Below are positions 33 to 32,695 of a stretch of 32,695 nt of DNA, one piece after another; the first letter of the stretch is position 1, and the number at the start of each line of letters is the position of its first letter. The notes beneath the pieces were generated by a model, which saw only the letters and a program-made list of their open reading frames with translations, ran no database searches and was not told where the DNA came from. Made by a program: the position numbers and the translations under genes. Source of the stretch: Basidioascus undulatus (Eukaryota); contig JTLS01000089.1 in NCBI GenBank assembly GCA_000826855.1, positions 1-32,695 on the forward strand, given 5' to 3'.

Positions 33-100
33 TCCCTCTCCTGTTCTTTCTCTCTGTACGTGCTGCGATGCTGACACCACCCCACGCACCGCCCGCTAAG

Positions 101-648
101 ACACCAACCGTACCCGCGTCGTCAAGAAGGTCCTCCCCGCCGAGTCGTTCTTCAACTTCTTCTCCCCGCCCAAGCCGCCGACCGAGGATGACGACCGGTC
201 CGAGTCGGAGCTCGCCGACCTCGACGAGCGCCTCGAGCTCGACTACCAGATCGGGGTGCGTCTCGTCCTTTCCCTCTTCCCTCCCTTCCTTCTCTGCCTC
301 TTCCTTTTTGGCGGGACTGATGTGATGTGGGTTGTTGGCGTTAAAGGAGGACCTCAAGGAGCGCGTCATTCCCCGCGCGGTGGACCACTTTACGGGCAAG
401 TCGCTCGAGTACGAGGGCCTCGGCGACGACGAGTCGTTCGATGACGAGGACGACTACGATGACGTGCGTCGTCTTTCCTCCCTCCTTCTTTTTCCGCCCC
501 TTACTTCCTGCTTCCGCGGACGTGAGCTGACTTGCGTGCATGGTGTGTGGTACAGGAGGATGACGAGGATGACGATGAGGACGGGCCCGTGTCCCGTTCT
601 CACCCTCCTGCTGGGGCCGAAGGCCAGCAGGAGTGCAAGAACCAGTGA
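101..648 (+). CDS. NAP1: Nucleosome assembly protein 1, last three coding exons (101-255, 347-463, 556-648); 5' part lies before the window
   Basis: Spliced translation TNRTRVVKKVLPAESFFNFFSPP...LDERLELDYQIG|EDLKERVIPRAVDHFTGKSLEYE...|acidic tail...QQECKNQ*. SFFNFF and the ERVIPRAVDHFTG segment are NAP-family hallmarks. Ends in a CaaX-like motif as other NAP1 proteins do. GT-AG introns keep the frame. Confidence 0.95.
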
Positions 649-1456: not shown

Positions 1457-2229
1457 ATGATCCGCCCTGCCCCCCTGCGCGCCCTGCGCCCGTTCACGCG
1501 CTCCCTCCCCACCGCCCCTCCGCCGCCCGAGCACCCCTCCTCGCTCTCGACGCACAAGCCCGCGGACATCCCCCCGCCCGACTCGTCCCTCAACTGGGAC
1601 CAGTACCTCTCCATCCGGCGGCGTCGGCACCGATGGGACTTGGCCGCGTCGATCCCGACGACCTTGGCCGGGTTTACCTTGGGTGGGGCCTACTTCGCCG
1701 GGCTCGAGACCGAGCCGGGCCAGTTGATTTTCGGCCTCGAGGCGATGTGGGTGTACGCGGGTGCTACCCTTGCCAGTGGTGGGCTGGGGTGGTTGGTCGG
1801 CCCGATTATTGGGAGTGGGCTTTGGCGTATTACGCACCGCAGGAGACTGCCCCAGATCGAGGCGAAGGAGCGCGAGTTTTATAAGCACAGTGCGTTGTTC
1901 TTCCCCCTCCCACATCTCTCCTCTCTCTTTCGCCTTCCATGCTGTCCACTGGTTAGTGTGTACTGAGAGACGCCGAGGGACGTCCGCAGTTCAAGCCAAG
2001 CGTGTCGACCCCTCGCGCCAGAGCGTGCAGAACCCCGTGCCCGACTACTACGGCGAGAAGATTGGGAGCCTGAAGGACTACAGGCAGTGGCTCCGGGATC
2101 AGGTGCGTTTTCCTCTTCCCCTGCTTTTCTACCTCCCTGCCTCCCTGCCTGGCAGGACACTGGCTGATGCGCGGGCGGGGTAAGGCGGTGTTCAGGAGGA
2201 AGGCCAGCTGGGAGGAGGCGGAGCGGTAG
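1457..2229 (+). CDS. PAM17: Mitochondrial presequence translocase-associated motor subunit Pam17 (exons 1457-1889, 1990-2102, 2185-2229)
   Basis: Arg-rich presequence-like N-terminus, [13 protein letters not shown], two hydrophobic segments (GGLGWLVGP), then [46 protein letters not shown], the Pam17 signature. Confidence 0.95.
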
Positions 2230-3463
2230 GCGGCTTGCGATGCCTGGGAGTTAGGGAGAAGACGGACCAGAGGACATCGGACATTGCATACAGAATACGA
2301 AACACTTCTCACGAGTGGTATGATCGAACTGATCCGCCTCTTACCGTGCCTTTACTCTCCGACAACGATCGTTACTCACCGTATTCGCTTCGATTGTCCA
2401 AACGAACCTACTTGCTTTCGATGCTTGTCGCATTCGTCATTTCCCACCACTCTCGAACTTCTCGACGCCGCTAACCCCATTCTCCCTTCACGCCATGCTT
2501 CATTCGCCCTTGGGCTCCGCACTTGACCGTATGCAGTCCGGACGAGCGCACTGGCGGCGTTCGCAGCATATACCTCGAGGCTTCGTGACTAGACATCTCC
2601 AGAGGACGGTCTTCGTGTCTGTGTCTATGACGCATTCCGTGCTCACGTTCAGGTCAATGTGCCTGCTAGATGGAAGCCTACAGGACCGGCGCTGAACGGA
2701 TTGGACACCCACTTTCCATTCTTTCTGGCTCGTTCGCTCGCTCGTCGGACCCAGCTGAACGCGCGGCTGCAGCGTTCCAGGCATTCGTTCGGCAGCACAG
2801 AACTGCGCTCCCCGAGGTTTCAGGGCATGGCTATACCGCGTATGAAGTGGGCTCGGCGGGCAATATATAAGTACGTACGGCCATCTACTATGTAGCGAGA
2901 CAGGGCGAAAAGCCCACAGCGTGCCGTTCATCGACAGTAGTTTCTCTCGAGAGTATCTCAACGTTTTGTCGTCGAGCACCTATTATCGGTAACGCAGGGC
3001 AGTTGGCGTAGCACGCTGAATCTTCTCGGATTTTCAAAGGAATATAGACGTACCCACCAGTGTCCTTGTGAATGTATGTAGTACAGGCTATTGAAGCGAG
3101 CGTTGCCTTCTTCGTTGGGAAGCAGCTGGTCCCTCTTGGGCCGGGTCCCAGACAACCTGCGTGCGCACTTCAGGGCTGGTGAATGGGGTCTTATTTGATG
3201 GATGTGTATCTCCTTGAACATTTCAGGCTTTGAGAGACTTGGCCGAAGCTCCTTCAGACGGTTAAGTGAAAGTCGATCCTGCACGTGAGCCCAAACGCGA
3301 ACCTCATTTAATCGACGCGTCCACGCCGCCCGCCTTGCCTCTCGCTTCGTTCCGCACCACCAACACCCAATCCACAGCAAACACCCTCCTCCCACCGTGC
3401 ACCCTCCTCTCTCTTTCTTCCCAACCCCACACAACATCACCAAATTCCAGTCCCGACCACACC

Positions 3464-4886
3464 ATGTCCCACCCCCGCTCCTCCTCCTCCTCCCCCCCTT
3501 CGCCTCCAAACACCCCCTCTGCCCTCCTTGCCCTCTCCCCTCTCGTCCAGCTCCACACCTTGCCGAAGCACCCGCACTCCCGCTTTCTGATTACGTCGCA
3601 CGTGCACGCGCGCGCGGACGATCAGCATATCTGGCGGGTGCATGCTGTCCACCTGGGTACGGGCGAGGGGTGGAAGGGGGGTTGGGAAGGGGATGAAAGG
3701 ATTCGGGCGGGGCTGGTAAGTCCGGGGGAGAAGCAGAGGGAGGGGGGAGAGGTGCTGATTGTGGTGGAAGATAGTTGAACCCACTGGACTGGGGACGATT
3801 GGTTAAGACTGTAAGGGAGGCGTGGAGGGTCGGGGAGATGGAGCTGGTTGGGTGGTCGAAGGGCGGGGAGAACGAGAGCATCAAGGCGCGTCCTTTTCCT
3901 CCTGCCCCGTCTCCTTCCTTCTCCTCCAAATGGCTTACGGACGCAACCACCCGCACCCGCAGCTCAAGCTCGACGGCAAGCGCACGCCCGTGACGATCCC
4001 CCTCTCCCGCATCAGCGCGGAGGAAACGAACAAGACTCTTTTGGGGCTCGCTACCGAAGTGCGTTCCCTCTCCCTCTGCCTTCTCCTCACTCCCCTCCCC
4101 CTTTTTTGCACGCTCCTTCTGACACTCTCCCACAGGTAGCGGAATCCGCCACCCGCCGCGCCGACTGCGTCCTCACCGGCCCGTCCTCCTCGTCGGGCTC
4201 CTCGCGCGCGGGGAGCCCGCCTAAGCCCGTTACGCCCAACAAGCGGCGGAAGGTTTCTGATGGGGCGGGTGCGTTTCCTCTTTCTTGTTCCTTCTCAGCC
4301 GTATATTACTGAGCGTTGGAGCTTGGGATGGCTCGGAATGCAGAGGAGGACGGCGTCGACACGCTGCGCCGGAAGTTGAGGGAGTCGGAGGTGCGTCCTG
4401 TCCCCCCACCTAATTCCCACATCCCCTTCCTTCAGTCCTTGAATATTCTGGTACTCACCTTCGATCGCGTTTCCGATCATGCAGGCCCAGAACAAGCGCC
4501 TCCTCCAGGAAGTCAAAGATCTCCGCAAGACGGCGACGGCCCAGCTCGAAAAGAAGTCGTCCCGTGCGTCCTCCCGAGCTCCCTCCCTGCTACCCCACCC
4601 CTACTCCCCCTCCCTTCCGACATTCGGATCTTCTGGTGCTTTGATCGTGGGTAGTTGTTGCTGACACACAGCGAAACGATCAGTGATCATCGTCCCCCCC
4701 ACTCGCAAGGGAGCGAGCATGGCGAACCCGAACCAGCTCAGGTGCGTGACGTCCACACATCCTCCCCTCCTTTTAGGAGAACGTCAGGAAATGGACTGAC
4801 TCATGTGTTGTGTGCGCGACAGGCGGATGAAGGCCTCCGCGGACTTCGACGACCCCGATGTGCCGGGGAGCTCGGATTCGGAGTAG
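3464..4886 (+). CDS. 283-aa, 8-exon protein; candidate PAXX-like (XRCC4/XLF superfamily) NHEJ accessory factor. Exons 3464-3715, 3775-3885, 3963-4058, 4136-4268, 4344-4390, 4485-4563, 4672-4741, 4823-4886
   Basis: All seven introns splice in phase to an 852-nt ORF (one GC-AG intron). Beta-rich head (RFLITSH...WRVHAVHLGTGEGWKGGW...LKLDGKRTPVTIPLSRISAEETNKTLLGLATEVA), coiled coil (LRRKLRESEAQNKRLLQEVKDLRK) and C-terminal GASMANPNQLRRMKASADFDD resembling the PAXX Ku-binding motif. Gene existence is well supported; the PAXX call is by-eye similarity. Confidence 0.7.
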
Positions 4887-6397
4887 ATTGCGGTCGAGAG
4901 GGTTGAGCTGGGTTGTCTGGGGGGTTTCTGTTCCTTCACTTTTCTTTCAGTTTCGAGTGCACTTCACGCCGCGTTATATGTCTCCCCTTTGCTGTTTCGC
5001 TACTTTCCACTTTGATCTTTCGTCGCTCGCACTCGCATCATGTCACTGCATCTTTCTCGTTATTTTCCTAGTCTTGCTAAATCGCAACGCATCGCATTAT
5101 GTACTCCGCTGCACTTCTACGATCATTGGATCGCACATTCAGATCTCCGCTCGAGTGAATGCCAGAATTGGGATGAGCGTTATCGCGCAGACGCGGGATG
5201 CAGCAACTTGACAGGACCAGCGATCGAACAAGATGGGGTACTAGCTGCCGGTCCATGTTTAGTAATTCATGTGGATATGCCGGCTTGTTGGGATCGAGAT
5301 TGCTCCATAGGACGTGTCGCAACGTTGAACATTTATTCTTTATTTTACAGGCAATCAAGGGTCCATACTAAAAGTGAACAATACTGTATACTGCTTGAGG
5401 CAACTCAAAGGAAGCCTGACCTCACCTCCCACAAACAACGTTCGAAACAGGATCCGCGGCTGCCTTCTTCCTTCTTCCGCCCTCCCTTCTCCACCACACC
5501 GTCCCCACTGTTTGAACCCAATCACCCAAACTCCGCTCGCTGTCCTTTCCCGGTAAACATGGTACGGCCTTCCCAAGCCTACTTTCCTAAACCAGACGGA
5601 ACGCAGCTCACTCCCTACGTGCTACACACAGCCCTCCCTCAAGAGCCGACGCACAAAGAGGCTGCTTGCTAAGGCGCTGGTCCGGAACAGGCGAGTTCAA
5701 TCTTCTCTCCATTTTTTTCAATATCCTTTTCAAAGCAGTAGGAGTTGAGCATGGTGTAGTTGTGTGAATGCAGACCCATCCCGCAGTGGTTCAGGATGAA
5801 GACGGACAACAAGATCCAGTACAACATGGTAAGTTCCGGATAGAAAGAGGGAAGAGGGTTGGACATGGTTAATTAAGAGGGGAAATAAGCTGAATTAGCG
5901 TGGAGAGAACAGAAACGGAGGCATTGGAGGAGGACGAAGCTGAAGATTTGAGGAGGGGCTGGCGGTGAGGGAGGGAAGGGACGTCCGGACGCAAGTTTCT
6001 GTGCGTCTCACACTTCTATTTGGAGTTACTGCTCAGTAGGATGTTTCCAGTGGCAACATTGATCCATCTGAAAACGCTGTGAGGGTGTTGGGCAGTCAGT
6101 TTGAAAGCCTGTCGTGCAGCGTGCACAGCAGTCGATGCATTGCCAGCCTTCGCCCTTGAGCAGCTCGCTCCATCATTTCGTGCTCAATGATCTTACACCT
6201 CCACTTCTCGACCTCCTTCACTTCGCCAAAGCGGATTCTCTCGCTGAAGGCGGAGTTGGGCGTTGTGTGCTGTGTGCCAAAGATAGGCACGTTTACATGA
6301 CATCACACTTCAACGGCTCCGTCGAGGGCCACGTCCTCCTCATCTCATCCTCATCCTACTCTCAATCTACAACCATCTCATCATCCATCCAAGCATC

Positions 6398-7373
6398 ATG
6401 TCCTCCGTAGTCATTTCCGGCGCGAACTCCGGCGCGAACTCCGGCGCGTTCCCTCCCCGTCACCTTCTCCCTCACGTACTAACGCACAGTGTTCTTCTTC
6501 CGCAGGCATCGGCCTCGCCCTCCCCTCCCCTCTACGCGCAGAACGACTGGGTCGTACACTCCCTGGACGTGCACCCGCCCTTGCACGAGCTGCGGAGACG
6601 TGACGTCCCTTACCGCCCAGGTGGACGTGAGCGACGAGGAGGCCGTCCTCAGCTAACGGCTGACTTGGAGGACGAGGACGTGGACTTGGTGTTCTCCGTT
6701 GCGGGTGCGTTGTTTGATTGCCAAGGAGGATGGAGGAAGTCAGGCTGAGAGATGGGGAAAAGGGATTTTCGAGAAGAAGGATGACTTGAAGAGCGTGAGC
6801 AAGAGACGTTCCTCCGCAACTTCGTCGGTGCGTTCTGCTTCCCTCCCACAACCTCACCCTTTCCGGGCTATGTTAAACTCGAATGGAAATCAAGCCCCCC
6901 CCTCTTCTCACCTGCGCCTTCCTCCCCCACCTCAAAGAAGAGCCAGAACCCAAACATCGCGATCGGGTTGCGAAGGTCCGCTCCTCCTACTTATTCTTCC
7001 TCATCCCTTGCTTTCAACCGCGTAGGTACTAAGGGGAAGAGGTGGCGTGCAACAGGCCGCCCTAAACAGCATCGGCAAGAGCCTCTCGTCGACGTCGACG
7101 TCCCCGTCCTGCTCCTTCACCCCATTCCCAAATCCCCACATCCTCACCTCCCCTGTCCCCCACTTCCTTTCCTTCCCGGTCAAAGCGCTGACGGCGTAAT
7201 TACCCGGAAACAGGCATCGTAAAGACCAACCTCGACCCTGCGCTCTCCTCGACGTCCGGCCAGGCCGTGAGCCCGCCAAGGCCGCGCACAAGTTGTTCGC
7301 GGTTGTTGACAAGGCCGGGAAGGAGCAGTTGGGACGGTTCTGGAATAGGGAGGGGGAGGAACTGCCTTGATAG
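6398..7373 (+). pseudogene. Short-chain dehydrogenase/reductase (C-factor/CsgA-like) pseudogene
   Basis: MSSVVISGANS(GANS)G|IGLAL Rossmann start; AALNSIGKSL; VPVLLLHP; GIVKTNLD; AKAAHKLFAVVDKAGKEQLGRFWNREGEELP then TGA TAG where the family ends ...ELPW*. Frameshifts near 7085 and 7268. Confidence 0.8.
6416..6448 (+). repeat. 12-bp tandem duplication (TCCGGCGCGAAC x2.75) within the SDR glycine-rich motif
   Basis: Directly visible; duplicates GANS. Confidence 0.9.
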
Positions 7374-8377
7374 AGTAGAGTGCTTGCTGATGGGCCAGTA
7401 GACCGCTGCTACACGAGGGACTGCGAATGGGAGGGTGGACTTTTGATGTTGAAGAGGCGAACGTGCTTGATATGAACTATGATACAGAGTTGCTTTGAGT
7501 GTGACGAATACTTGAGAGAGTAGTGTGCTTTCGGTCGATTACTTTCAGGTCTCAGTCCTCATCCTTGCAGCGCATGTTCCTTCTGCGCCATGCCCCGTAG
7601 CCAGGCCATACCGATCTCTTGAACTAGACAGGCGCCCTGAGGGGTAAATTAGTAGGGTTTCTTTCGAGTGAGAGCATGGAGAATTAATCTTGAGGGTCTC
7701 TTTCTGACACAGCTATCGTACTGAACCGGTGCTTGCGGATAAATTGCCAGCTTAAGCCAGAGACAGCGGTTGCAGCCAGTGATCTCTGCACACCTTCGAC
7801 GACAAGGAAAACGTCTTTACCCGGGTGGTCCTTAGCATAGTCGCTCGACCCTCCGTGTCTGTGGTGGTTAGATCGTGTACTGTAGAGGGCAAGCGTATCG
7901 CTGCCTCTTCTGCTTTGAAAAGTGAATCACAGTCGACATGCGATCCACGTCCGGTCTCGCCGTTCGTTGCACTGCACTGCCAAAAACTAGACTACCTTCT
8001 CATGCGCTGATGCACAGTATTGTTTTTAAAATGTTCGGAACTCCGAGGTGCTACGAGTTCAAGAGCAAGCGAAATGCATTGCGTGCCAGGCAGCGGTCGG
8101 TTGCATCAACAGCCTCCGCCGGCAGACCTCGGCTGCTTCGCGTGACTCGGGACTCCTCCTTCTTGGTCCACGACTTTCACACCGGCTTTCTCTTTACTCC
8201 TTTCCACAATCTCACTGACGAAGTAAACACCTTTCAATCGCTTTCTTCCTTCAACTCGGTGCTGCTCATCAGCGACTCGAAAGCCGCTCGCGACACTCAC
8301 GTCGTCCATCGCGTCGCGCAGCTTGTCGTTTCCTCGTCCGCTTCCTTACCCGTTTCTCGGCTCCTCAAAAGCAGAGG

Positions 8378-11749: not shown

Positions 11750-12684
11750 TTTCCTTTCCTATTCTCCACTCTATTGACCTTCGTGAGTCTTCCTTTCCGC
11801 TGTCCAATCATCACCACCCGCGTCGGTGCGCCAGCCGTCTATGTGATGAGCACCCGTGCCACCCCAGTCCGAGATTTCTGTCATGTGGATAAGCACTGCA
11901 ATGCCAAACTCATCTTATGCATCTCTGATCCCATTCGGCTAGCACCGACGCAATGCGCTCAGTCCATCATGTTCCAGAGCCGCAGTCGCTGACCTGCTTT
12001 CCCCGCTCGTTGAACAGCTTTACAGAAACGCGACTTCCCCCTCCGCCCTTCCAAACTTCGCCAACAGCTTTGTTCCCCAGCTATCGTGAGTTCCCGTCGA
12101 CGTGCTTGATCTGTCGTTGGGGTCTGCCGGAGGGGAAAGACGAAGAACTACATTCCATGCTAGTTCCGAACATGTGCCATGCACATTGAGGATAAACATT
12201 GTATTCATTTTTGCTATCCGACCCCTCTTTCCGAGCGCCTGTGTTTGTGTGGAGTGGCGCCGTGAACATGGTCTGGAGTTGGAGCAGACAAGCTGACCTT
12301 TCCGTCTCCATGAACAGGTTGCGTATGTTGTGCTCGACCACTTGTCTCCCTGTGCTCATTTATTATCCCTTCCATCTTCGTTGCTTGCCTCGTGTCCGCG
12401 TGTGCCATCGTCAGCTTCGTCAGATGATTCAGCTACGAGAGACAGTAGCGCTCTTAGCGACACACGCAACCTAGAGAAGGTTAGACCCACGAAGTACGAC
12501 CTTGGACTTTGCCGCGGCTTGCTCAACGCGGCACTCCGTTGTCTGGTCAGGTCTTGCCTCGTCAAGTAGCATACAGTCGAAGCACACCTCCACTTCGCCC
12601 AATCCAAGCGAAGTAAACGTGTAGAAATACAAGAAATACAAGCATGCATGGTGTCCGAAGTCCAAGCGTCCGCGCAATCCATCC

Positions 12685-15600
12685 TCAGGAAGCCTTCTTC
12701 CGCCGTCCGCCCTTCTTCGTCGTCGTCGTCGTCTCCGCAGCCTTTCCGCGAGCCTTCTTCGCCGGCGGGGCGGCGGGAGGCTCGTCGTCGTCGTCGAGAA
12801 CGACCACCTCCGGGCCCTTCGTCGTCGTAGTCGACGCGGTCGAAGCCGACCCCACCGACGCCTTGCGCTTGGTCCCGCGCCTCGTCGACGTCGTCGACGT
12901 GCTCTCGGGGACCGACGGCGTAGGCTGCGAGGGGGAGACGACCGAGAGCGCGCTGGGCGACGCAGCGGATGCGACGCCCGGTGTACGGCTGCGCGGGGCG
13001 GGCGTGGTATGCCGGGACTTTGTCGAGCTGCGCTCGTCGTCGTCCTGCGCCTCGAGCACGAGGCCTCGGCGGAAGTGTCGCGCGTAGACGGGGTCGCCCC
13101 CGAGGTCGTCGCCGTACGTACGCTCTGAGTCGAGCCGGTGCGGGTCGCCGAGCTCGAACTCGCGCTCGCCCGCGCTCGCCTGCGACGGCGAGGGAAGGCG
13201 GTCACGCGTGCGCCGGGAGCCGAGCACGGCGAGCGAGATGGGCCCGGTGTTCGGTACTGCGTCCGTTGAGAGGGTGGGATGAATACCCGGCGGTATGGTT
13301 GGTGCGGCGCTGTCAAACCACTCCCAGTTCCGGGCTTGAGCCTTGCGCCCGCGCAGGCCGTGGCCGGGCGTGAGGATGAGGTTCTGCACAACGCCGTCCG
13401 GCTGCGTGGGCGGGAGAAAGCGGGAGAGTCGGGTTCTTCGAGAGTTGGGGGACGAGATGGGACGGTCGTGTGACGGTGATGAGGAAGAGAGGGAAGCGAG
13501 GACGCCTTGGATGACGTTGTTGGCGCTTGCTCGAGCGTCGGGATTGAGCTCTGTCTTACCATCAGCCGCTAATTCGACGATGCATCGCGAGGGTTCAAGC
13601 TCACCTGCTAGGAGAGAAGAAGCGGTATCTAAGAGCAGGTTGAAGAAGGCCTCGTCCGCGTCGTCGTCGAGCATCTATTTGTGATGGGGATGTCAGCAGA
13701 CAGCGCCATGAGAGAAAGAGAGACGAACGTGCTTCGGCTGCGCGCATGATATGACAGAGAACATTGCTGGCGCGCTCCTTGAGGCTAGCTGACAAGCTCG
13801 TGCTGCAGCGCAGGACAAGGTGGAGCAGGCGGGCGAGGACGACTGCGAGCGGGCGGAGGAGCAGCGGGGCGGCCTCGTCGGGCTCCATGCCGTCCTCCTC
13901 GGCCGAGCCGGGCAGCAGGCGCGGGTAGACGAGCGCAAAGCACTTGGCGAGCGCGCCGAGGTACCGCTGAACGATGTCGTCGCGGAGCGGCGGGAGCGCC
14001 TGGAGAGGCCGTCGCGGCTGGAGAAGGACGTTGGCCATGATGTTGAGTTTGCCGTCAAGGTCGGGCACGGCCTCCTGCGCTTGTTCGCTCTCGAGTGACA
14101 GGCTCGACAGGTTCGCGAGCGCTTCGGAGATGCCATCCATGCCGAGGTTGGCAAACTGAGGGGGAGGAGGGTATTCAGCACGGGACCGGTTAGATAGAAA
14201 TGGTTCGAGATCACCTCTTCGGCTGCGACGCCGGTCATGCCCCGCAAGATGTCCGCGACGAGGTCGGCTTCGGGACTCGACAGAAGCGGGTAGAGGTGCT
14301 GCTTGGCCAGCGTGGGCACGCCCGCGCCCGGCGACTGCGGCCCGTTCGGCGTGTTCGACGTCGGCCCAAGGTGGTTCAGGAGCAGACGGAGTGCAACGCG
14401 CAGACGAGAGAAACGCCACGGGTCTGGGTGACCCAAGATCGACTGCCACTCGCCGTCTGGGTCGGCGCTCTTAGCGTCTGGATGTCATAAGAAGAGAATG
14501 AGCTCCGCGAGCACCAAGCGAAGGGGGAATGATCAACAAACCTGGCGAGGTCTCGTCGCTCAGTATCATCCGCAGCGTCTCCACTTCGCGCTGCTTGACG
14601 CCTGGCCGCAGTTCGCTCTCGCCGAGGCGATCTTGCAGGACGATGTCATGCACCGCGTCGATGTCCTGACAGCAAGCGGCGCAGAACGCCCGTTGCGCTC
14701 CGAGGGAACGCCGTAGAGCTTCGGACGACGCGGCTGTTCGCTCGCCCGCGGCGGCGTACTCCTCGTGCACGGTGAGCAGCGGGAGCGCGTGGGCGAGGCG
14801 GAGGACTTCGGCGGACCGGTAGACGCGCGTGCGGCGGGTTTCGAGGTGTTGGACTTCGGGGAGGGTCAAGCGGGGGAGGGTGTCGCTGTCGGGGATGGAG
14901 ATGGCGGCAGCGGCGGCGGCTTCCGGGGCGAGGAGGTTTAGGAGGAGGATGTTGAGGTGTGCGACGGTGAGGGAGCAGGAGGAGGACTCGTCGAAGTGCG
15001 GGGTGGCGAGCGAGACGGCGGAGCGCTGGAGGACGGGGAGGTAGAGGTGGTCGAGGATCTGCATCGTTGCGACGCAGCGGAGGACGACGAGCTGACGGAG
15101 GAGCATGACGAGGAGCGGTGCCGCGGGCCCCGCGAACGCACTCGAGAAGTCGCCGAGCTTGGCGTGGTCCGCGAGCCAGCGCACGAGCTGCGCCTCGAGC
15201 CCGTCCGGGATGTGGCTGTTCACCTCCGCGAGGAAGCGCGCATACTTGTACACGCATGCCTGCTGGTTCGTGAGCGGGATGCTAGCCGCCGCGACGTTTC
15301 GCAACGCCTCGACGGTGCTGCTCCACGCGGTGAGCCCCCAGTCGGGGAAGGACGAGTGCTTGTACCACAGCGTCGTGGCAAGGGCCTGCGGGGCGGCCGG
15401 GCTGGGATCCGTCGCGAGTCGAAGGACTTCGGGTACGACGGCGGGTGGTTGGGTTGGAGGATTAGAGAGGCGGAGAGACTGTCGATATGGAAATCAGCTT
15501 GCTGCAGCACAGCCGCATCGCTCGAATGAAAGACGAACCTTGTCGAGCGCGATCAAGGATTCGTCGAGCTGAGCAGACAGCTCGTCCGAAAGGTGGCCGA

Positions 15601-18573
15601 GCTCGCGCGCGGTGACGAGGAAGAGGAGGAGCGGGCGGAGCTGCGAGCCGCCGCTGCGGAGCGCGTGATGCTTGCTCGACACGGCGTCGATCAGCTGCCC
15701 GAGCGTGTCCATCGCGACCCACACGTCCCAGTGCCGCCGCGCCGTCTCCATGATGAGGAAGAGGAGGACCTTGTCCGTTGTCCGCGCGAGAAAGAAGAGG
15801 ATGAGCTGCGTAAGGCGGAGACGTAATACGGATGAGTTGCCAGACAGAATTGAAGCAGGAAGAGAAGGGAACGGAATACACACCTCGCGCATCGCGGAAT
15901 AATCTTTGATTAGCTCCAGCACGGCCACGACAATCGCGAGTTCCTCTGTTTCAAGCGGTACGCTGCGGGGCGATGCGCGATGCTTCAGCCCGCGCCCAGT
16001 CTTCCCGACACGCTGAACGTCCACGCACCCAGAATCCTCCACAAGCTCATATACAGCCGAAAGCAAGAAAGTCCGGACAACGCGACTCGAGTCGAAGAGG
16101 GGTGCGCTCGCAGTGCGCTTGAAGGACTGCGCCACCCCGGCCGGGTCGAGCGGTACGGACTCCTCTGCTGAGCGCACGTCAGTACTAGATTGACGGGGCG
16201 GGATTGCAGGGACGCTCAACTCACTCGACCGGTCAAAGATCCTCGGCAGCGCGCGGCGCAACTCGCGCCGGATCGCCGCGTCGCCCGACGTCGACTGCGT
16301 TCCCGAGACGCGCACGCCGTAGAGGACGACGCGGCGCTGGTTGACAAGCGAGGGAGGGGCGGTGAAGAGCGGGGTGTTGCGGAGGATCCGGAAATGGACC
16401 GAGGGCTGCCGCAGATATCCCATGCAATGTCAGCCTCCAGCCGTTCCCTCTAAGCGGGGTGGGTTTGAAAAGCTCACCCGACCCGGTTCCTCGCTCTCCC
16501 CGCGCGCCATAAGCCGCTGCAAATACCACCCATACGAGAACAATCCTTTTCGGACAAGCTCGCCCATGAGCTGGGCGAGCGCGCGTGCGTTCGCCTCGTC
16601 TCGGACGACGTCCGCCCTGTCGAGCCAGGCGAACACGTCCTGCTGGACCTGGGCGGGGGCACGCCCGGGCTCCGCGCGCCGCCACCAGTCGAGGAGGGAC
16701 GCGGCCGCGTACGCGCGGTGCGCGCCGGACCGCGAGGGCGTGACGGCCCAGACGAGGAGCGTGCCGAGCTTGGCGGGGAAGAGGCGGACGGAGGGCGAGG
16801 CGGAGAAGTAGGTCGAGGCGACGTCGGAGATGTGCGAGGTGTGCGTGATGCTGTCCAGAATCTGCGGATCCGAGCATCATCATCAGCTTTAATGATCCGA
16901 GGTTGGAAGAATGAAGGCGATGCGGACCTCGATATCCCGCATCTCCCGTTTCCGAGGACTGCCGTCCCGCTTGCACGGCGTGCCGAACACGAGCGCCTCG
17001 TTGCGCATGCGGACGTCGTCGAACCGCGCACGCAGGGCCTGGACGAGCTGGTCCGTGCGCGGCTCGCCCGCAAGGCCGAGGTGCGGCGTGTCGTGCAAGA
17101 TGGCGGTGAGGAGGGTGCAGTGGGGTAGCCAGAGCTTCGGGGAGACGAAGGAGTCCGGTGCAGCGAGGAAGGCGGTCTTGGGGAGCCCATGTCAGTTAAG
17201 CATCTTTTGGGATTGCGGAGCTGTGAAAGCGAGAAAAGGACACACTTGCAGAATGCGCACGAGCGTCGAGTCCAGCCGCGCGATGTGCTCAGCTCCCGCC
17301 GCCCCCCGCGCCTCTTTCAGCCGCCCAGCACACGCCCGCACGAGCCCGCTGCACAGCTCCTCGCAGCCGAAGAAGCTCTCGAGCGTGTCCTCCACGACGA
17401 ACAGGACGAACTCGAGCCGCGCAAGGTTGACGGACGCGACTTGGTCGAGCGCCCAGCGTAGGAGCGTCGGGCGGTCGACGAGACCTTGGGAGACGAAGGC
17501 TCGGAGGAGATCGAGGCTGCGCGATGAGGTGGTTGAGAATCCGATCAAGGGGCGTGATGGCGGGAAGAGACGCACAAGTAGGCGAAACGAGTGACCCAAA
17601 GCGCAAGGTCTGCCGGGCTCGGCTTGGGAGGCGCTTTAGGGGCTGAAGTTGGGGAAGGGACGGGGAGCTCGGAGAGTTGCTTGGTGAGCTGCTCGGCAAC
17701 AGCCTTCGTCCAGTCGACGGTATATTGTTGCGGGAAGTTTTGGCGATGTCGGGTAGCGGCCTGTTCCATTGATCTCGATTAGCCGTCCGACCGAAAGCGC
17801 CTCCTCCTAGCGCTGCAGCCTGACCCATCCTTGTTCGACCGCATTGTCTCATAGAAAACGACTCACAATCTCGTTCCCTCCCAGCGCTCTCACAAACCAC
17901 ACCGCCCTCTCCACCTCCACGCGCCCAGTCCAAAGCATCTCGAGCGCCTCGGCGCCCTTGAACCCGTGCGGTATTCGCGCGCTGAGCTTGCTCAGCGGGA
18001 CGCTCGAGTCCGCGAGGTCGCGGATGTACGCTTGGCGCTTGGCGTCGTTGAGCGTCACGCGCGCTGGGAGCGGGTGGAAATGCGCGGCGATGGAGGGGAC
18101 GATTGCTTCGCGGCGGGCGAGGACGGCAGTGAAGAGGGAGGAGAGGTGGTCGAGGACGGACTCGTTGTTGATGCGGTTGATAATGAGGCCATGCGCAGAG
18201 AAAGACTCGTTCTGCGGACCCCCGCCATAGCATTGTGAGACTGGGATAGCCCCGAGCTGGGCAAGAAGGCAGCGGGGCTCACAGAGGCGATAGGCTTCGC
18301 GTTGAAGCCGTTCTTTACGACGTTTTCAGACAAAATGTCCTCCTTCTGGCCCGCGCGTGGCGGGAAGAAGTCCGGGTATCCTGCACCGCCCATCGCAGCG
18401 TCAGTCCATCCATCAGCCCAAGCCTCCCCATCGCCTTCCCCACCCGGCGCACCTTGGGTCGCCGCTGAGCTGTGCAGCGGTGGGCGCCAGGCGGGTGGCG
18501 CTATGTCGTACGGCTGGGGGCAGGCGGACTCGGGCGTCGCCGAGGCTGCCACCTTGGCTGCCTTTGGAGCCAT
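12685..18573 (-). CDS. MED12: Mediator kinase-module subunit 12 (Med12/Srb8), multi-exon
   Basis: PYDIAPPAWRP, GYPDFFPPRAGQKEDILSENVVKNGF, NESFSAH, LPARVTLNDAKRQAYIRDLADSSVPLSKLSARIPHGFKGAEALEMLW...VERAVWFVRALGGNEI (Med12 N-terminal domain), GELVRKGLFSYGWYLQRLMARGE; basic low-complexity tail ending KKAS*. Start codon choice (18573) is uncertain. Confidence 0.93.
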
Positions 18574-19514
18574 GAACGATGGCGGGGGCGGGTATGCGGG
18601 CGCTGAGCGAGAGGTGTACGAGAGATGGTGCTGCACGCGGCACCGCGAGCCAGAGGAACTGTCCGGTCACGTGCAAGCTGTCTGTCAAGCCACTTGACGG
18701 CCACCTTTCAACACCACCTAAGTCTGTTTCATGGAAATCCGACTTGAAATATCTCTTGAGTTGACAAATGTGACCACCAATACTTGTTCTAGATCCCTAC
18801 CAACGGTCGACATCAGCAGACCGCAGCGCTCCCAGCCTCTGTGGTCAGCCTGCCGCCCTCCTACTGTCACAGCAGCAAGCGATGCCAGAGGTAATTTTGT
18901 GGCGGACCCAATTTACAAAGGAAAACTAATGTGCACGAATCCCGCTGTATGAATGGGGGACGTCGTGAGCCGGGGCTCGAAGCGAACCCACATCAAGCAA
19001 TGTTGAGATTGCCCGTTCAGCTTCGCCTAGCACACGCCCGCATGAGCTTGTGGTGAACCCTGGCCATCGAGGTCAATAGGGGTCCAATAGACCTTGAAAT
19101 GTCTTGCAATAATACTCAAAGAGCGAGGCGCCCGGAGACCTCGTCTTCCTTACCTACCACAGGCCGACCAACACTGCGGGCGAGAGTCCATGGCGAAGCT
19201 GACTCGCTCGTTCTTCCTGGAGAGAAGCACACCCTTTGCCATATTTGTCTCAATCTCGAGGGAAGTATTGGAGGTTCCTGTGCACATGAAGGAGGCAATG
19301 TGCATGCAGTGTTAGCCGGCACAGGCGAGGCGACACAGTCGAGTCAGGTGCCCATCACCAGATAAGATGCCCGGTATTGAGCTCTGAATCTTGCTTGCAT
19401 CATGGTTGAGAATTCGAAGCAGCGCAGAAGTTGAAAATATCCTCGGTCACTGTAGCGGGTTCGAACGGACGAGGAGTTGGGAATCTATGCACAATTGTAC
19501 AGCGTCTCCCCGTC

Positions 19515-22706: not shown

Positions 22707-23990
22707 ATGGTGAATAACGAGAAGAGCTCGACTCCTCCGTCGAAGGATGCCACCATTTCGACCGTTGGACATCCGCATGGGCAGGTTGAGTCGCTCCATA
22801 ACAACTCCGTATCGATTCGACGCCTCAAATAGACACCAGGCGAGTACCGGTCCTGGTCTTCTTTCTTCTGGTTGCGACCCCTGCCTGGAGATCCTGACTT
22901 ACCGCTCTTTTTCCAACCTTTGCAAGTCTCATCGTTCTCTTCGCTTTAAGCTTTTTGGACCGCAACAACTTGGGCAATGCAAAGATCGAAGGTCTCCAAA
23001 GGTACGTCAAGGTGTAAACTTGCTGGTCGACCCAGTTGGTTCTCAACGTCCGCCTCTTGCAGTGACCTGCACTTGAAGGGTCTTCAATTTAACTACACTC
23101 TGGCTCTCTATAGCCTAGCCTATGTAGTATTCGAAGTGCCGGGTGAGCATAGTTCCCTTTGCCGCAAAATTCTTGGCGCCTAGGACTGACAGGGTCAATT
23201 GATACAGCCAACATGGCGTGAGTGCGACTATGGCATACAAACACGAAGTAATTGACTTATGCAAATTCCCCAAATAGACTCAAACTTACCTCTCCTCGTG
23301 CCTGGCTTTCCGCGCTGGCGGTCGTACGTGTTTGAACTTGCTTGCTACACCTCTCCGCCTGCTGACCTTGTGTGTTTCAGACATGGGGAGTGGTGGCGAT
23401 ATGTCAAGGATTCGTAACCAATGCCGCGTAGATCAAACAAGACCTGTGGCACGATGGGCTGCTCTGACAATCGGGCATTTTTCCGCTTCGCAGTGAGCTA
23501 TACGCCATCCGATTCTTCCTCGCGGTGACAGAATCCGGTATCGTCCCGGCTGTTACGTACATCTTCAGTGCGTAACGCACTTGTGTTCAGATCTTCATGT
23601 CAAGCTGACCCGCCTGTTTCAGGCATGTACTATGTCAGGAAAGCGCGGGTAGGTTGGCATCCAACCATTTATTGACAACGAATTCGCAGATCTTTCGCGT
23701 CGCCATTTTCTTCGCAGCGCCGGCGCTTGTCGGATCGGCTTGGGGAATCCTGGCTTATCTGCTCGCAAAAATGGAGGGAGTAAACGGGCGACCGGGATGG
23801 GCTTGGATCTTCGTACGTTCGCTTCGTGTTCGCAGTCTACCGCCACGAGTTCACTTAGTCTTGTCGCAGATCATCGAGGGTTGCATTACCATCGCAGCCG
23901 GCTTGGTTGCCTACTTAATTGTAAGTTGAATTGGATGAAATCGCTGTCCTGCGAGCTTCCCTGATGCTCTTGTCCAGATGCCCATACCAT
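22707..23990 (+). pseudogene. MFS anion:cation symporter (ACS; Tna1/Dal5-like) pseudogene, N-terminal half (about TM1-6)
   Basis: RNNLGNAKIEGL, QFNYTLALYSLAYVVFEVP|AN, WGVVAICQGFV, LYAIRFFLAVTESGIVP, RVAIFF, GILAYLLAKMEGVNGRPGWAWIF|IIEGCITI. Early stop at 22830-22832 from a frameshift; similarity breaks off near 23990. Confidence 0.85.
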
Positions 23991-24359
23991 CCGCGCGCCA
24001 AAATCATATTTATTTTGTTTTTCGCCAGTTCAATAGAGCTTGGCTGGGGTAGTGGTAACCTGGGTCGTTGCCACCTGATTTCGACCCGCCCCGTGTTCGA
24101 TTCACGGGTCAAGCACATGTTTTTGTATTCGTCCCCCAGTGAGATTGTTGATGGATAAATCCTTACTTCAGAGGCATAAATAAAAGTAAGTAGGGCAATC
24201 TAATATTGACAAGTCACCGCAAACAGTGTCGTGCAAAATCATGCATGTAAGCACGCGTCTTCCGTGCGTGCAATGGCGGTTGAGCCGGTGGTCGGGCGTG
24301 CACAACCAAGTGAACTTCTGGTATTTGTTGAGACAGTGGGCAAAAGGTTTGAGGCCACC

Positions 24360-25890
24360 AAATGCGCTCCTTGGGGGTCGCCTTTCTCGCTTGGGCCTGT
24401 TTCTTCCGATATGCATAGAAGTGAACGTCGGTGCCGAGCAGCCAGTCCCCTGTGTAATCCACAAGAGTTGCTATCAGGGGGCAGCAGTAAAACACGAGGT
24501 TAAACGGAAAACTTGTGTACTGACACCAATGCAACATCCACGAAGCCCGCCCGGGTGAGTCAGCTAAAGCGCGAGTACGAGCGAGAACAGACAATATCGC
24601 ACGCGGAAGGAAGAGGAGAAGCAGTCGTGGAATTTACCTTGGTGACAGTCGTCTGGAAGGGGCATCTACCTGTCAGTCTCAAACTGGGATCTTGCAGGCT
24701 CAAGGTCGAGCTTACGGTGATCAGCCCCGGCCCAGAACGGCAGGAACTTGTTCAACGACCACGAGAAATTGTAGCCACTGTGGGAGTCTAAAGCAAGCAT
24801 GAATCGGGATTTTGCCTCCGGTAAGAGGGTTGAAGATAATACTCACTGATGGCTTGGAAAGTCAGACAACGATCCACACATACATGGTGAGGATGTGCAG
24901 ATTAGATGATCGGGCCCCCCACAGTCCCAAAACCTTTAAACCGACTTCAATGGGGTGAGCGTATACGGCGCACAGAAGTATAGGTGAAATCCATGGCGCG
25001 TGTTAGTGGGGTTAAGCGAAGCAATCAGAAAAGGAAGACTCACGAGACCGAATGGCGCAGAATACTCATGGTGGAGTTCGTGTACGTGGGTGTGCAGCGG
25101 ACGACAATGGAGCATTCGATTAAATACGTAGTGCCAGAGGTCTTCGAAGACAAAGAAAACGGCAATCTGCCATGCCATCGTCGAGAGCGAGCGGAAGGGT
25201 AGCTGGTACGTCTTCATCCCAAAATGTTCGGCGATCCTGTGGGGTGCAAGAGAGCGTAGTCAGAATAAATTGGCAGAATTGGGGAGAAGGACGCACGGAT
25301 GGAAAGTCCAAATCTGGGGAAGCTCGATTGTCAAGTGCTGCAGAAGGACAAGTTTGGTGCAGCGCCACTGATCCCAGGCGAGGGGACTTTGGCCTGGGGG
25401 ACATCCGAAGAGTTAGAAGTAGGCTCGGATACTATGTATGTTATCGGTAGCCATGTGCAGGGGCTGGAGAAGATAGGGAGACCAGGCGTACCGACTGCAA
25501 GAAGTACTTGCGGAAGAAAGGAATCGCGTCGATTATGGTCCAAGACAGCGAGCGACCGAAGTAAACAATCTATGGGACCGAGTGATACAGGGTCAGAAAC
25601 TTGTTAGCTTGTTCCGCAAAATCTACGCGAATTGTAAACCGAAAAGACGAACCTCGTGCATCAGGAAGCTCATCATTTCTGTGGCGATGACGGGGTTGCC
25701 CCACCAGATGTAATATTGCGCCCAAAGGTTCTAAAGCCCCAAAATTCTTAGGAAACTCTCCAGAATCTCCAAAAATCTTTAAGCGAGAAGGACGCACCTC
25801 GAACCAGTTAAGGCTGTCCAGAGGCTACATTCTCATAGCCGCCACTTCGAAGCCTGGCCCGCAATATGTCGGTGTCCACCTAGCTGCCAT
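24360..25890 (-). pseudogene. ERG25: C-4 methylsterol oxidase (ERG25-like) pseudogene with introns
   Basis: LNWFE|, YIWWGNPVIATEMMSFLMHE|, QWRCTKLVLLQHLTIELPQIWTFHP, FFVFEDLWHYVFNRMLH...[52 protein letters not shown]...FSSSFR, DWLLGTD. His box 1 has H>N, box 3 has H>Q, TGA at 24862-24864, frameshifts. 3' end approximate. Confidence 0.9.
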
Positions 25891-25944
25891 GGTGAGCCAA
25901 TTTTTCTCTCAGATCGTGTGATAGCATGATAAGCTTATCCTTAG

Positions 25945-26542
25945 GGTATTCACTCGGCCATGGGAATCAACCTCGGTTGGCCATCAGTCAACATCGGGCA
26001 CCAGACCAAGCGCAGGTGCGTACTGAGCAACAAAATTTCCTAATAACCCCTCGAACTTTCTTGTCTTGTAGCGTTGCACATGACCGTTGGCTGGGCAGGT
26101 ACGAGCGTTTTGGGGATGATAAAGGGTGGTTGCTGATCCTGTTACTTCGTTTTTAGATACGATTCCGGGCGTTCTGATCTACCGCGACAGCTGGGTGATG
26201 TCATACTACCGCAAGCCCCATGTTAGTACTCTTCCATTCGTCGTGCTCTCGCTGCAATGAAGTCGCTGAATCTGGCGGTCCCAGATCATTGCCATCGGGT
26301 AGCTATTCTGGACTATCTTCGGGCTTCAGTCCTTTGGTTCTATGGCTCGCGAGAACACGCTGCGGGACGGCGCGTCGAAGCTGTGGGCTGAAGGCAGCAA
26401 GCTTAGACGAGGAGGAGAAGTGGGAGGAAAACATTCGGCTTGGTGATAGGCACCCGGAATGGAGATACCATGTAAGCTCCCTTCCGCCTGGTTTTTGGTT
26501 GGACCACTCAGCTGACGCAGGCCTTGGGTTTGCCAGATTTGA
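25945..26542 (+). pseudogene. ACS-family MFS transporter pseudogene, C-terminal part (about TM10-12 and tail)
   Basis: GIHSAMGINLGWPSVNIGHQTKR|, LHMTVGWA, GVLIYRD...YRKPH|, IIAIG* (TAG 26300-26302), LWLAR..., EEKWEENIRLGDRHPEWRYH|I*. The TKR loop and LGDRHPx(F/W)RY tail are typical of fungal ACS transporters. Confidence 0.8.
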
Positions 26543-31784: not shown

Positions 31785-32695
31785 CTAGGCCGGCATAGGT
31801 CCAATGTCTCTTTCCGCCTCCGCCATCTCCGCATCTTGCGCCCCATCCGCAGCGTCCGCCGCAAGGGCCTGTAAACACAAAGCGCGCAAACCGGCAATCA
31901 GCATGCGGTACCCGAAAGCTGAAAAGAGTTGGTAAGGACTCACCGCCTCGTTCAGCTCCTCTGCCTCGCGCATGACCTTCTCCTCCTCCAGCCCCTCAAT
32001 CGCCGCCGTCCGCTCGCGCTTCTCCTGCTCCAGCACCTTATGCCGTTCCTGAAGCTCGCGCTCCCTCCTCTCCAAGGAGGCCACCTCCTTCTGCAGGCGC
32101 GCAATACGCGCGGGGGCGTAGGAGCGCTCGAGATCGGCAAGGCGGGAGAACGCCTCGAGGTCGGTGGAGGTCTGCAAGTGCGCGTTGAAGGCGTCCAGGA
32201 GGCGCTTGCTGAGCGCCTTGCTCCGCGCGGCGTACCCGCCCAACTGCACACCCAGCTTCTTCTCCTGCTTCGCCGCCTTCGCCGCGTCACGCGCGACGCG
32301 CGCGCGCGCAGCGTCGAGGTGCGCCGTCGCGCCCGCGATGCGCTGCGCGGGGGTGAGGGTGGACTCGGGCACGAACGCCCTGGCGTCCACGGACCAGACG
32401 AGCTTGTCCGACGCCCAGGTGGACTCGTCCGAGACGTCCGCCTCGATCGCAGCAAGGATGCCGCGCTTCACGGCCTCCTCGTTCGCGCCCGGGAAGCCGA
32501 GCGCGCCCGCCAGCTCGGCGTGCACTGCCGCACGCGCAGCGGCGAGCTCGTCGTCCTCGAACTCGCGCAGGTCGGAAGTCGCGCCGCCCGCGTGGCGCGT
32601 GCCGGGGAGCGGGTACGCGATCGAGTCGTGCTCAACGAGGCGGACGAGCTCGGCGTCGATCTCGCGCGCGGCGCGCCCGAGCGCGTCTTCTCCGG
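31785..32695 (-). CDS. CEF1: Pre-mRNA splicing factor Cef1/Cdc5L, 3' part (continues beyond the window); last intron 31869-31943
   Basis: EIDAELVRLVEHDSIAYPLPG, AAKAAKQEKKLGVQLGGYAARSKAL and LQKEVASLERRERELQERH match the Cdc5/Cef1 C-terminal coiled-coil region. Confidence 0.88.
   Translation of the reverse strand, partial: GEDALGRAAREIDAELVRLVEHDSIAYPLPGTRHAGGATSDLREFEDDELAAARAAVHAELAGALGFPGANEEAVKRGILAAIEADVSDESTWASDKLVWSVDARAFVPESTLTPAQRIAGATAHLDAARARVARDAAKAAKQEKKLGVQLGGYAARSKALSKRLLDAFNAHLQTSTDLEAFSRLADLERSYAPARIARLQKEVASLERRERELQERHKVLEQEKRERTAAIEGLEEEKVMREAEELNEAVSPYQLFSAFGYRMLIAGLRALCLQALAADAADGAQDAEMAEAERDIGPMPA

Follow-up and report, generated by a model that had tools for sequence, protein, structure and literature searches.

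The closest described counterpart of the gene considered here is human PAXX (C9orf142/XLS), a protein of 204 amino acids (aa) in which an XRCC4-superfamily head and a short, homodimerising coiled coil (residues 1-144) are followed by a C-terminal Ku-binding motif, the P-KBM (residues 177-204), represented in the published work by a 28-residue synthetic peptide and by mutagenesis primers (PMC10413649). The P-KBM contacts Ku70 in two patches. To probe them, substitutions were made in patch 1 (S184A, N187E) and in patch 2 (V199A, F201A), and each of the four substitutions loses or reduces Ku binding or recruitment (PMC10413649). Here we describe a gene of eight exons on the forward strand of a Basidioascus undulatus contig (JTLS01000089.1, assembly GCA_000826855.1), located at positions 3464-4886 of the 32,695 nucleotides (nt) that were analysed as a whole and are called the window below. 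Its predicted product has the same order of parts as human PAXX, namely a beta head, a helix, a disordered linker and a C-terminal bipartite motif, and its tail can be aligned residue by residue with the human motif.

In XLF/Cernunnos (Nej1 in budding yeast), a member of the XRCC4 superfamily, recruitment to Ku is brought about by a basic patch at the C-terminus with a Phe after it (PMC4831024), and Grundy et al. (PMC4831024) group the C-termini of XLF and PAXX as one 'XLF-like motif' consisting of a basic patch and then a conserved Phe. XLF also has helices that turn back along its stalk. Its motif is a short one at the very end of the chain, with Ku80 as the binding partner (PMC4831024, PMC10413649), whereas the fungal tail, which also has a basic R-R-M-K and a Phe, adds an upstream S-x-x-N-P half and continues for 12 residues past the Phe. 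PAXX orthologs have been reported from Filozoa, C. elegans, amoebozoa, ciliates, excavates and plants and an early eukaryotic origin of PAXX was inferred (preprint 10.1101/2023.05.26.542399); given orthologs in animals and in the other four of these lineages, the family predates fungi. The same preprint reports that PAXX and XLF roles are united in plant PAXX and that Arabidopsis PAXX (AtPAXX) uses its C-terminal region to bind Ku, the key residue there being Leu228 of 236, which means that such binding requires neither a Phe nor a place at the very end of the chain. Like AtPAXX, which comes from an organism lacking DNA-PKcs, the present product would be a PAXX-type protein outside animals that was found by sequence mining, and in both the Ku-binding or Ku-binding-like region stops short of the chain end. 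AtPAXX differs in having a crystal structure and demonstrated binding to Ku and XRCC4, whereas the fungal gene is known from sequence alone. No description of a fungal PAXX was found in full-text searches of the available literature.

Correspondence of the tail with the human Ku-binding motif

The fungal tail was aligned by hand against the published human peptide. An earlier sequence-only reading of this DNA had quoted the human C-terminus, and the quoted residues were correct as judged from the primer table and synthetic peptide in PMC10413649 and from the plasmid list in PMC4831024. For the human head-to-stalk sequence given in the same reading, none of four strings was found in the supplements of PMC4339890.

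The residues identical in the two proteins (fungal/human, with fungal numbering according to a product of 279 aa throughout) are Gly249/Gly182, Ser251/Ser184, Asn254/Asn187, Pro255/Pro188, Ala263/Ala196, Asp266/Asp200, Phe267/Phe201 and Asp268/Asp202. Arg259, Arg260 and Lys262 fall in the spacer between the two halves of the motif, and the alignment has one gap, the distance from Ser to Phe being 16 residues in the fungal protein and 17 in the human one with its basic spacer one residue longer. The proposal that G-x-S-h-h-N-P, a basic spacer and D-F-D align with the human tail at a one-residue gap was borne out by the hand alignment. At the four Ku70 contacts validated by mutation, identity was found at three (Ser184, Asn187 and Phe201). 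Both probed residues of patch 1 are present, as Ser251 and Asn254, with Pro255 in the place of Pro188. In patch 2 the Phe267 is flanked by Asp266 and Asp268 as in the human D-F-D and is located 12 residues from the end, and the equivalent of Val199 is Ala265.

The expected frequency of such a likeness was estimated from 400,000 simulated random tails of 45 aa for each composition used. The four validated positions alone occurred in 0.1-0.55% of the simulated tails and a stricter pattern that also included the Pro and Asp residues in 0.5-1.5 per 100,000, figures which overstate the significance of the match given that the patterns were composed after it had been seen.

Gene structure and layout of the predicted protein

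By their coordinates the eight exons join in frame into an open reading frame (ORF) of 840 nt with one terminal stop, corresponding to 279 aa, and no single ORF spans them, in agreement with the sequence-only reading, which had placed the gene outside the list of ORFs. That reading gave a product of 283 aa, a length that now appears less likely. It depends on an acceptor for exon 7 at 4671, which lies 7 nt past a branch-like CTGAC site, whereas the acceptor at 4683, leading to 279 aa, lies 19 nt past it; the former is disfavoured because in the other introns with such a site this distance is 13-27 nt. A branch-like CTNAY site was found 13-27 nt before the acceptor in six of the seven introns. 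All seven introns end in AG, and their donors are GTGCGT (five introns), GTAAGT (one) and GCGCGT (one), so that six introns are of the GT-AG type and intron 2 is predicted to be of the GC-AG type. The intron 2 donor is a single base off the GTGCGT used by five of the introns, and the GT alternatives that would keep the frame would remove most of exon 2, which has a high GC content at third codon positions (GC3).

In the modelled frame GC3 was 0.79-1.00 in all eight exons, compared with 0.32-0.74 in the other two frames. The corresponding value was 0.85 for the exon of a neighbouring gene encoding Pam17 and 0.57-0.65 for the long antisense ORFs that overlap the locus; a gene on the minus strand was considered at this position and rejected, as this GC3 signal is not seen in its ORFs. 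As far as sequence can show the gene appears to be real, with junctions predicted from sequence signals, and the tail motif is the same whichever intron 2 donor and exon 7 acceptor are used. The coordinates are collected in Table 1.

An ACGCGT hexamer, similar to an MluI box, is present at 3315-3320, 144 nt upstream of the ATG. Boxes of the MluI type often mark genes of G1/S and of DNA metabolism in yeasts. The hexamer occurs 5 times in the 32,695 bases, which is rarer than the 9.1 occurrences expected from shuffled sequences, and one of the five is the copy in this promoter.

Table 1. Exons and introns of the candidate gene, parts of its predicted protein, and other features of the window. 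Positions are those of the window; residues refer to the 279-aa model.
Feature	Position (nt)	Strand	Residues (aa)	Details
Exon 1	3464-3715	+	1-84	ATG is the first in frame of ORF 3266-3778; GC3 0.79
Intron 1	3716-3774	+		59 nt; GTAAGT...AG; CTGAT branch-like site 16 nt before acceptor
Exon 2	3775-3885	+	85-121	GC3 0.81
Intron 2	3886-3962	+		77 nt; predicted GC-AG; GCGCGT...CAG; CTTAC 25 nt before acceptor
Exon 3	3963-4058	+	122-153	End of head and start of first long helix (crude propensity prediction); GC3 0.84
Exon 4	4136-4268	+	154-198	End of helix, then Ser/Pro/Gly-rich linker with KRRK; GC3 0.84
Exon 5	4344-4390	+	198-213	Second helical, heptad-like region begins; GC3 1.00
Exon 6	4485-4563	+	214-240	Remainder of heptad-like region; GC3 0.85
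Exon 7	4684-4741	+	240-259	Alternative start 4672 (283 aa); patch-1-like G-A-S-M-A-N-P at 4710-4730
Exon 8	4823-4886	+	259-279	Basic R-R-M-K; patch-2-like A-D-F-D at 4839-4850; acidic Ser-rich end; stop TAG 4884-4886
Ser/Pro-rich N-terminus			1-18	From translation
Four-strand antiparallel beta-meander, predicted	3530-3706		23-81	AlphaFold2 of aa 19-84; mean pLDDT 73.8
Helix, predicted			87-112	Exon 2 folded alone (its residues 3-28); pLDDT 84-91 across first 20 residues
Additional strand, predicted			about 130-133	Crude propensity scan
Helix, putative stalk			about 138-160	Spans exon 3/4 junction; crude propensity scan
Ser/Pro/Gly-rich low-complexity linker			from about 161	Windows of 15 aa reaching 60% or more S/P/G/T/N/Q begin at aa 161-176
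KRRK, similar to a nuclear localisation signal	4241-4252		189-192	After linker
Second helical, heptad-like region			about 196-240	Leu/Ile/Val/Met at 6 of 10 a/d positions of aa 200-236
Tail			246-279	Exons 7-8
NAP-family (nucleosome assembly protein) gene, C-terminal part	100-441	+		Pfam PF00956, 3.9e-14
Pam17 mitochondrial import protein exon	1457-1888	+		Pfam 5.1e-32
Transporter-like exons	8.2-9.0 kb and 29.5-30.1 kb	+
Large gene, run of long ORFs	12400-18700	-		GC 0.64-0.66; SRB8/Med12 ARM-like match 5.1e-06
Cef1/Cdc5-like pre-mRNA splicing factor, C-terminal region	31785-32693	-		Pfam Myb_Cef 1.5e-13; runs off window end

The peptides named in the sequence-only reading were all present, with the junction beginning VTIPLSRI... 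spread across exons 3 and 4, PNKRRK at 4238-4252 and the tail in exons 7 and 8, and the coiled coil that it described corresponds to the heptad-like helical stretch found in exons 5 and 6. Its description of a beta-rich head of about 150 aa was upheld in part. Structures were predicted for single exons from single sequences with AlphaFold2, for exon 2 with the first codon, TTG, read as Met (pLDDT in Table 1 is the predicted local distance difference test score). The predicted strands of aa 23-81 agree with that description, and the 26-residue helix of aa 87-112 departs from it.

An XRCC4-type head is a seven-strand beta-sandwich with a helix-turn-helix insert. Exon 1 folded alone, which covers part of the head, gave four strands. 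When this exon 1 model was compared with the PDB using Foldseek, nothing was found at E ≤ 0.001. In a wide fold search XRCC4 (chain 3q4f_C) was at rank 17 of 48,161 chains with a score in the noise band, the alignment covering XRCC4 residues 1-55, which is the part of the head that would be expected, and chains of PAXX and XLF were not among the 50 rows listed and may rank further down. Two patterns which we take to be typical of XRCC4-family heads have look-alikes in the protein, a Gly-rich turn followed by a Trp in strand 4 (aa 66-80) and a last strand that ends in Leu-x-basic-aliphatic before the stalk (aa 131-137), and they are noted here as look-alikes only.

Searches for relatives and genomic neighbourhood

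Searches with the first two exons returned no relatives. For exon 1, a word search against longer proteins gave 63 candidates of which none reached E ≤ 0.01, phmmer against 1.84 billion representative proteins gave no match at E ≤ 0.001, pattern matches among the contigs of metagenomes and of prokaryote genomes were in no case confirmed by tblastn, and ESM Atlas features provided no usable match. For exon 2, a word search with a 40-aa stretch found no candidate with three words in common. The neighbouring Pam17 exon, which has a Pfam match at 5e-32, was used as a control and was likewise without a match in the word search (79-252 aa) and in the metagenome contigs. Since this conserved control was equally blank, the negative searches give little indication, either way, of the gene being an orphan, and the collections searched evidently contain no close relative of this organism.

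None of the neighbouring genes identified in the window bears on DNA repair. The NAP-family gene near the start of the window continues in a next exon frame (326-760) that encodes an acidic tail, and the minus-strand gene at 12400-18700 is probably the large Mediator gene Med12. The candidate gene is flanked by two regions, 1990-3300 and 4900-8200, whose longest ORFs are without a Pfam match and in which a coding signal is not apparent, and these gaps are unusually long for a compact yeast genome. The GC content falls to 0.50 in 5001-6000, and in 23000-26000, where all ORFs are shorter than 150 aa, it is 0.505-0.519, compared with a mean of 0.587 for the window.

Competing readings and possible meaning

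The single most likely reading, which we hold tentatively, is that the gene encodes a PAXX-type Ku-docking scaffold. It is ranked in this way on the strength of a sufficiently specific tail match and a sufficiently coherent order of parts. The product would then belong to the XRCC4 superfamily and act as a small scaffold in the nucleus, in the manner of PAXX. Its N-terminal beta-plus-helix head and short stalk would dimerise, its disordered Ser/Pro linker would carry a nuclear localisation signal, and its C-terminal bipartite peptide (S-x-x-N-P, basic spacer, A-D-F-D) would dock into the von Willebrand factor A (vWA) groove of Ku70, so that the dimer could tether two Ku-bound DNA ends in non-homologous end joining. 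The interpretation as a PAXX-like end-joining factor given in the sequence-only reading is thus one towards which the analysis leans, and from the present evidence we cannot tell whether it is right. A more far-reaching version, in which a true PAXX ortholog was kept in a basidiomycete yeast as the first in Dikarya, which have been regarded as devoid of PAXX, docks on the fungal Ku70 by a conserved bipartite tail and feeds the strong end-joining bias that makes gene targeting difficult in yeasts of this kind, seems to us conceivable and rather doubtful.

A number of observations weigh against a PAXX-type protein. In the tail, the residue equivalent to Val199 is Ala265, and this counts against the reading because V199A by itself disrupts human PAXX; in addition the spacer is one residue shorter, and the Phe is 12 residues from the C-terminus compared with 3 in human PAXX, with acidic or Ser residues in these 12 positions. 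The fungal product is also longer (279 compared with 204 aa) and includes an extra helical segment of about 45 aa, encoded by exons 5 and 6, that has no counterpart in the human protein. In the head no sequence similarity to human PAXX was detected when exon pieces were compared with Pfam and with PDB sequences: at E values up to 10 none of seven exon pieces matched Pfam, including the models for PAXX, XRCC4 and XLF, a weak test for pieces of 20-84 aa, and phmmer with five exon pieces against PDB sequences returned no chain of the XRCC4 family. The sole evidence on the fold, the exon 1 match, lies within the noise band, and no ortholog that would show conservation of the tail was found in the collections searched. 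As for the distribution of the family, PAXX is described as absent in yeast (Xing et al., PMC4339890), and fungi are not named among the PAXX lineages in the available text of preprint 10.1101/2023.05.26.542399.

The likeness of the tail could also be due to chance in an unrelated nuclear coiled-coil protein, for instance a nucleic-acid binder of the PUR/Whirly kind with four strands plus a helix. This is a serious possibility, if on balance an improbable one, considering that the head is tied to the XRCC4 superfamily by nothing beyond a generic four-strand meander. A chance origin would, however, have to account for a strict match (Pro188, Asp200, Asp202 and the basic spacer) seen in about 1 per 100,000 simulated tails, a figure subject to the overstatement mentioned above, and for the fact that the motif terminates a protein whose parts follow the PAXX order. 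The PUR variant has further difficulties: the likeness to Pur-alpha or a PUR repeat, with its four strands and helix, scored in the noise band, no PurA match was found in Pfam at E up to 10, and to our knowledge PUR proteins do not carry a tail resembling a Ku-binding motif. It is unlikely, though less so than an error in the gene model, that the gene is the species' own XRCC4 (Lif1) or XLF (Nej1) and that its tail is the generic motif of a basic patch plus Phe, under which the C-termini of XLF and PAXX were grouped together by Grundy et al. (PMC4831024). XRCC4 is reported to occur nearly always together with LIG4, and XRCC4 and XLF genes must be present in any species with ligase IV. In functional-genomics supplements for red yeasts (PMC5922974), in a species that may differ from the present one, DNL4/LIG4 is listed, and the strings XRCC4, LIF1, XLF, NEJ1, Cernunnos and PAXX were not found in the available supplement text; XRCC4- or XLF-type genes thus go unrecognised in red yeasts and the present gene could be one of them. 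The merging of PAXX and XLF roles in plant PAXX (10.1101/2023.05.26.542399) points in the same direction. On the other hand, the S-x-x-N-P half of the tail corresponds to PAXX patch 1 on Ku70 and not to the short XLF motif, and the first helix after the head, about 25 aa in the crude propensity prediction, is broken at roughly 25-28 residues by the Ser/Pro/Gly linker (aa 161-190). The stalk of XRCC4 is long and unbroken and carries the site that binds the ligase IV BRCT region, so that an XRCC4 identity fits poorly, and no Pfam XRCC4 match was obtained with the exon pieces.

A faulty gene model, for instance one in which exons 2 and 3 are joined differently, exons are missing or the transcript does not code for protein, would mean that the protein described here does not exist. 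Grounds for such a suspicion are the GC donor of intron 2, the several other in-frame junction pairs around exon 2, the two in-frame acceptors of exon 7 and junctions that are without RNA or ortholog support. We nevertheless consider it very improbable, given the strong GC3 in every exon and its lack in the antisense ORFs, the branch-like sites 13-27 nt before the acceptor in six of seven introns, the donor hexamer common to five of the seven, and a tail motif that neither splice ambiguity affects.

Should the gene turn out to be the missing XRCC4 or XLF of such yeasts, this would still be a useful annotation, because the available red-yeast table of PMC5922974 names only ligase IV. If the PAXX-type reading is correct, a fungal PAXX would fill a gap in the distribution of the family and would offer a genetically tractable system for studying the redundancy of PAXX and XLF without DNA-PKcs. 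Deletion of KU70 is the usual tool in oleaginous basidiomycete yeasts. A YKU70 deletion background also appears in the supplements of PMC5922974, and the gene described here would, if it is a PAXX, provide a new knockout target to raise the frequency of homologous recombination in these yeasts.
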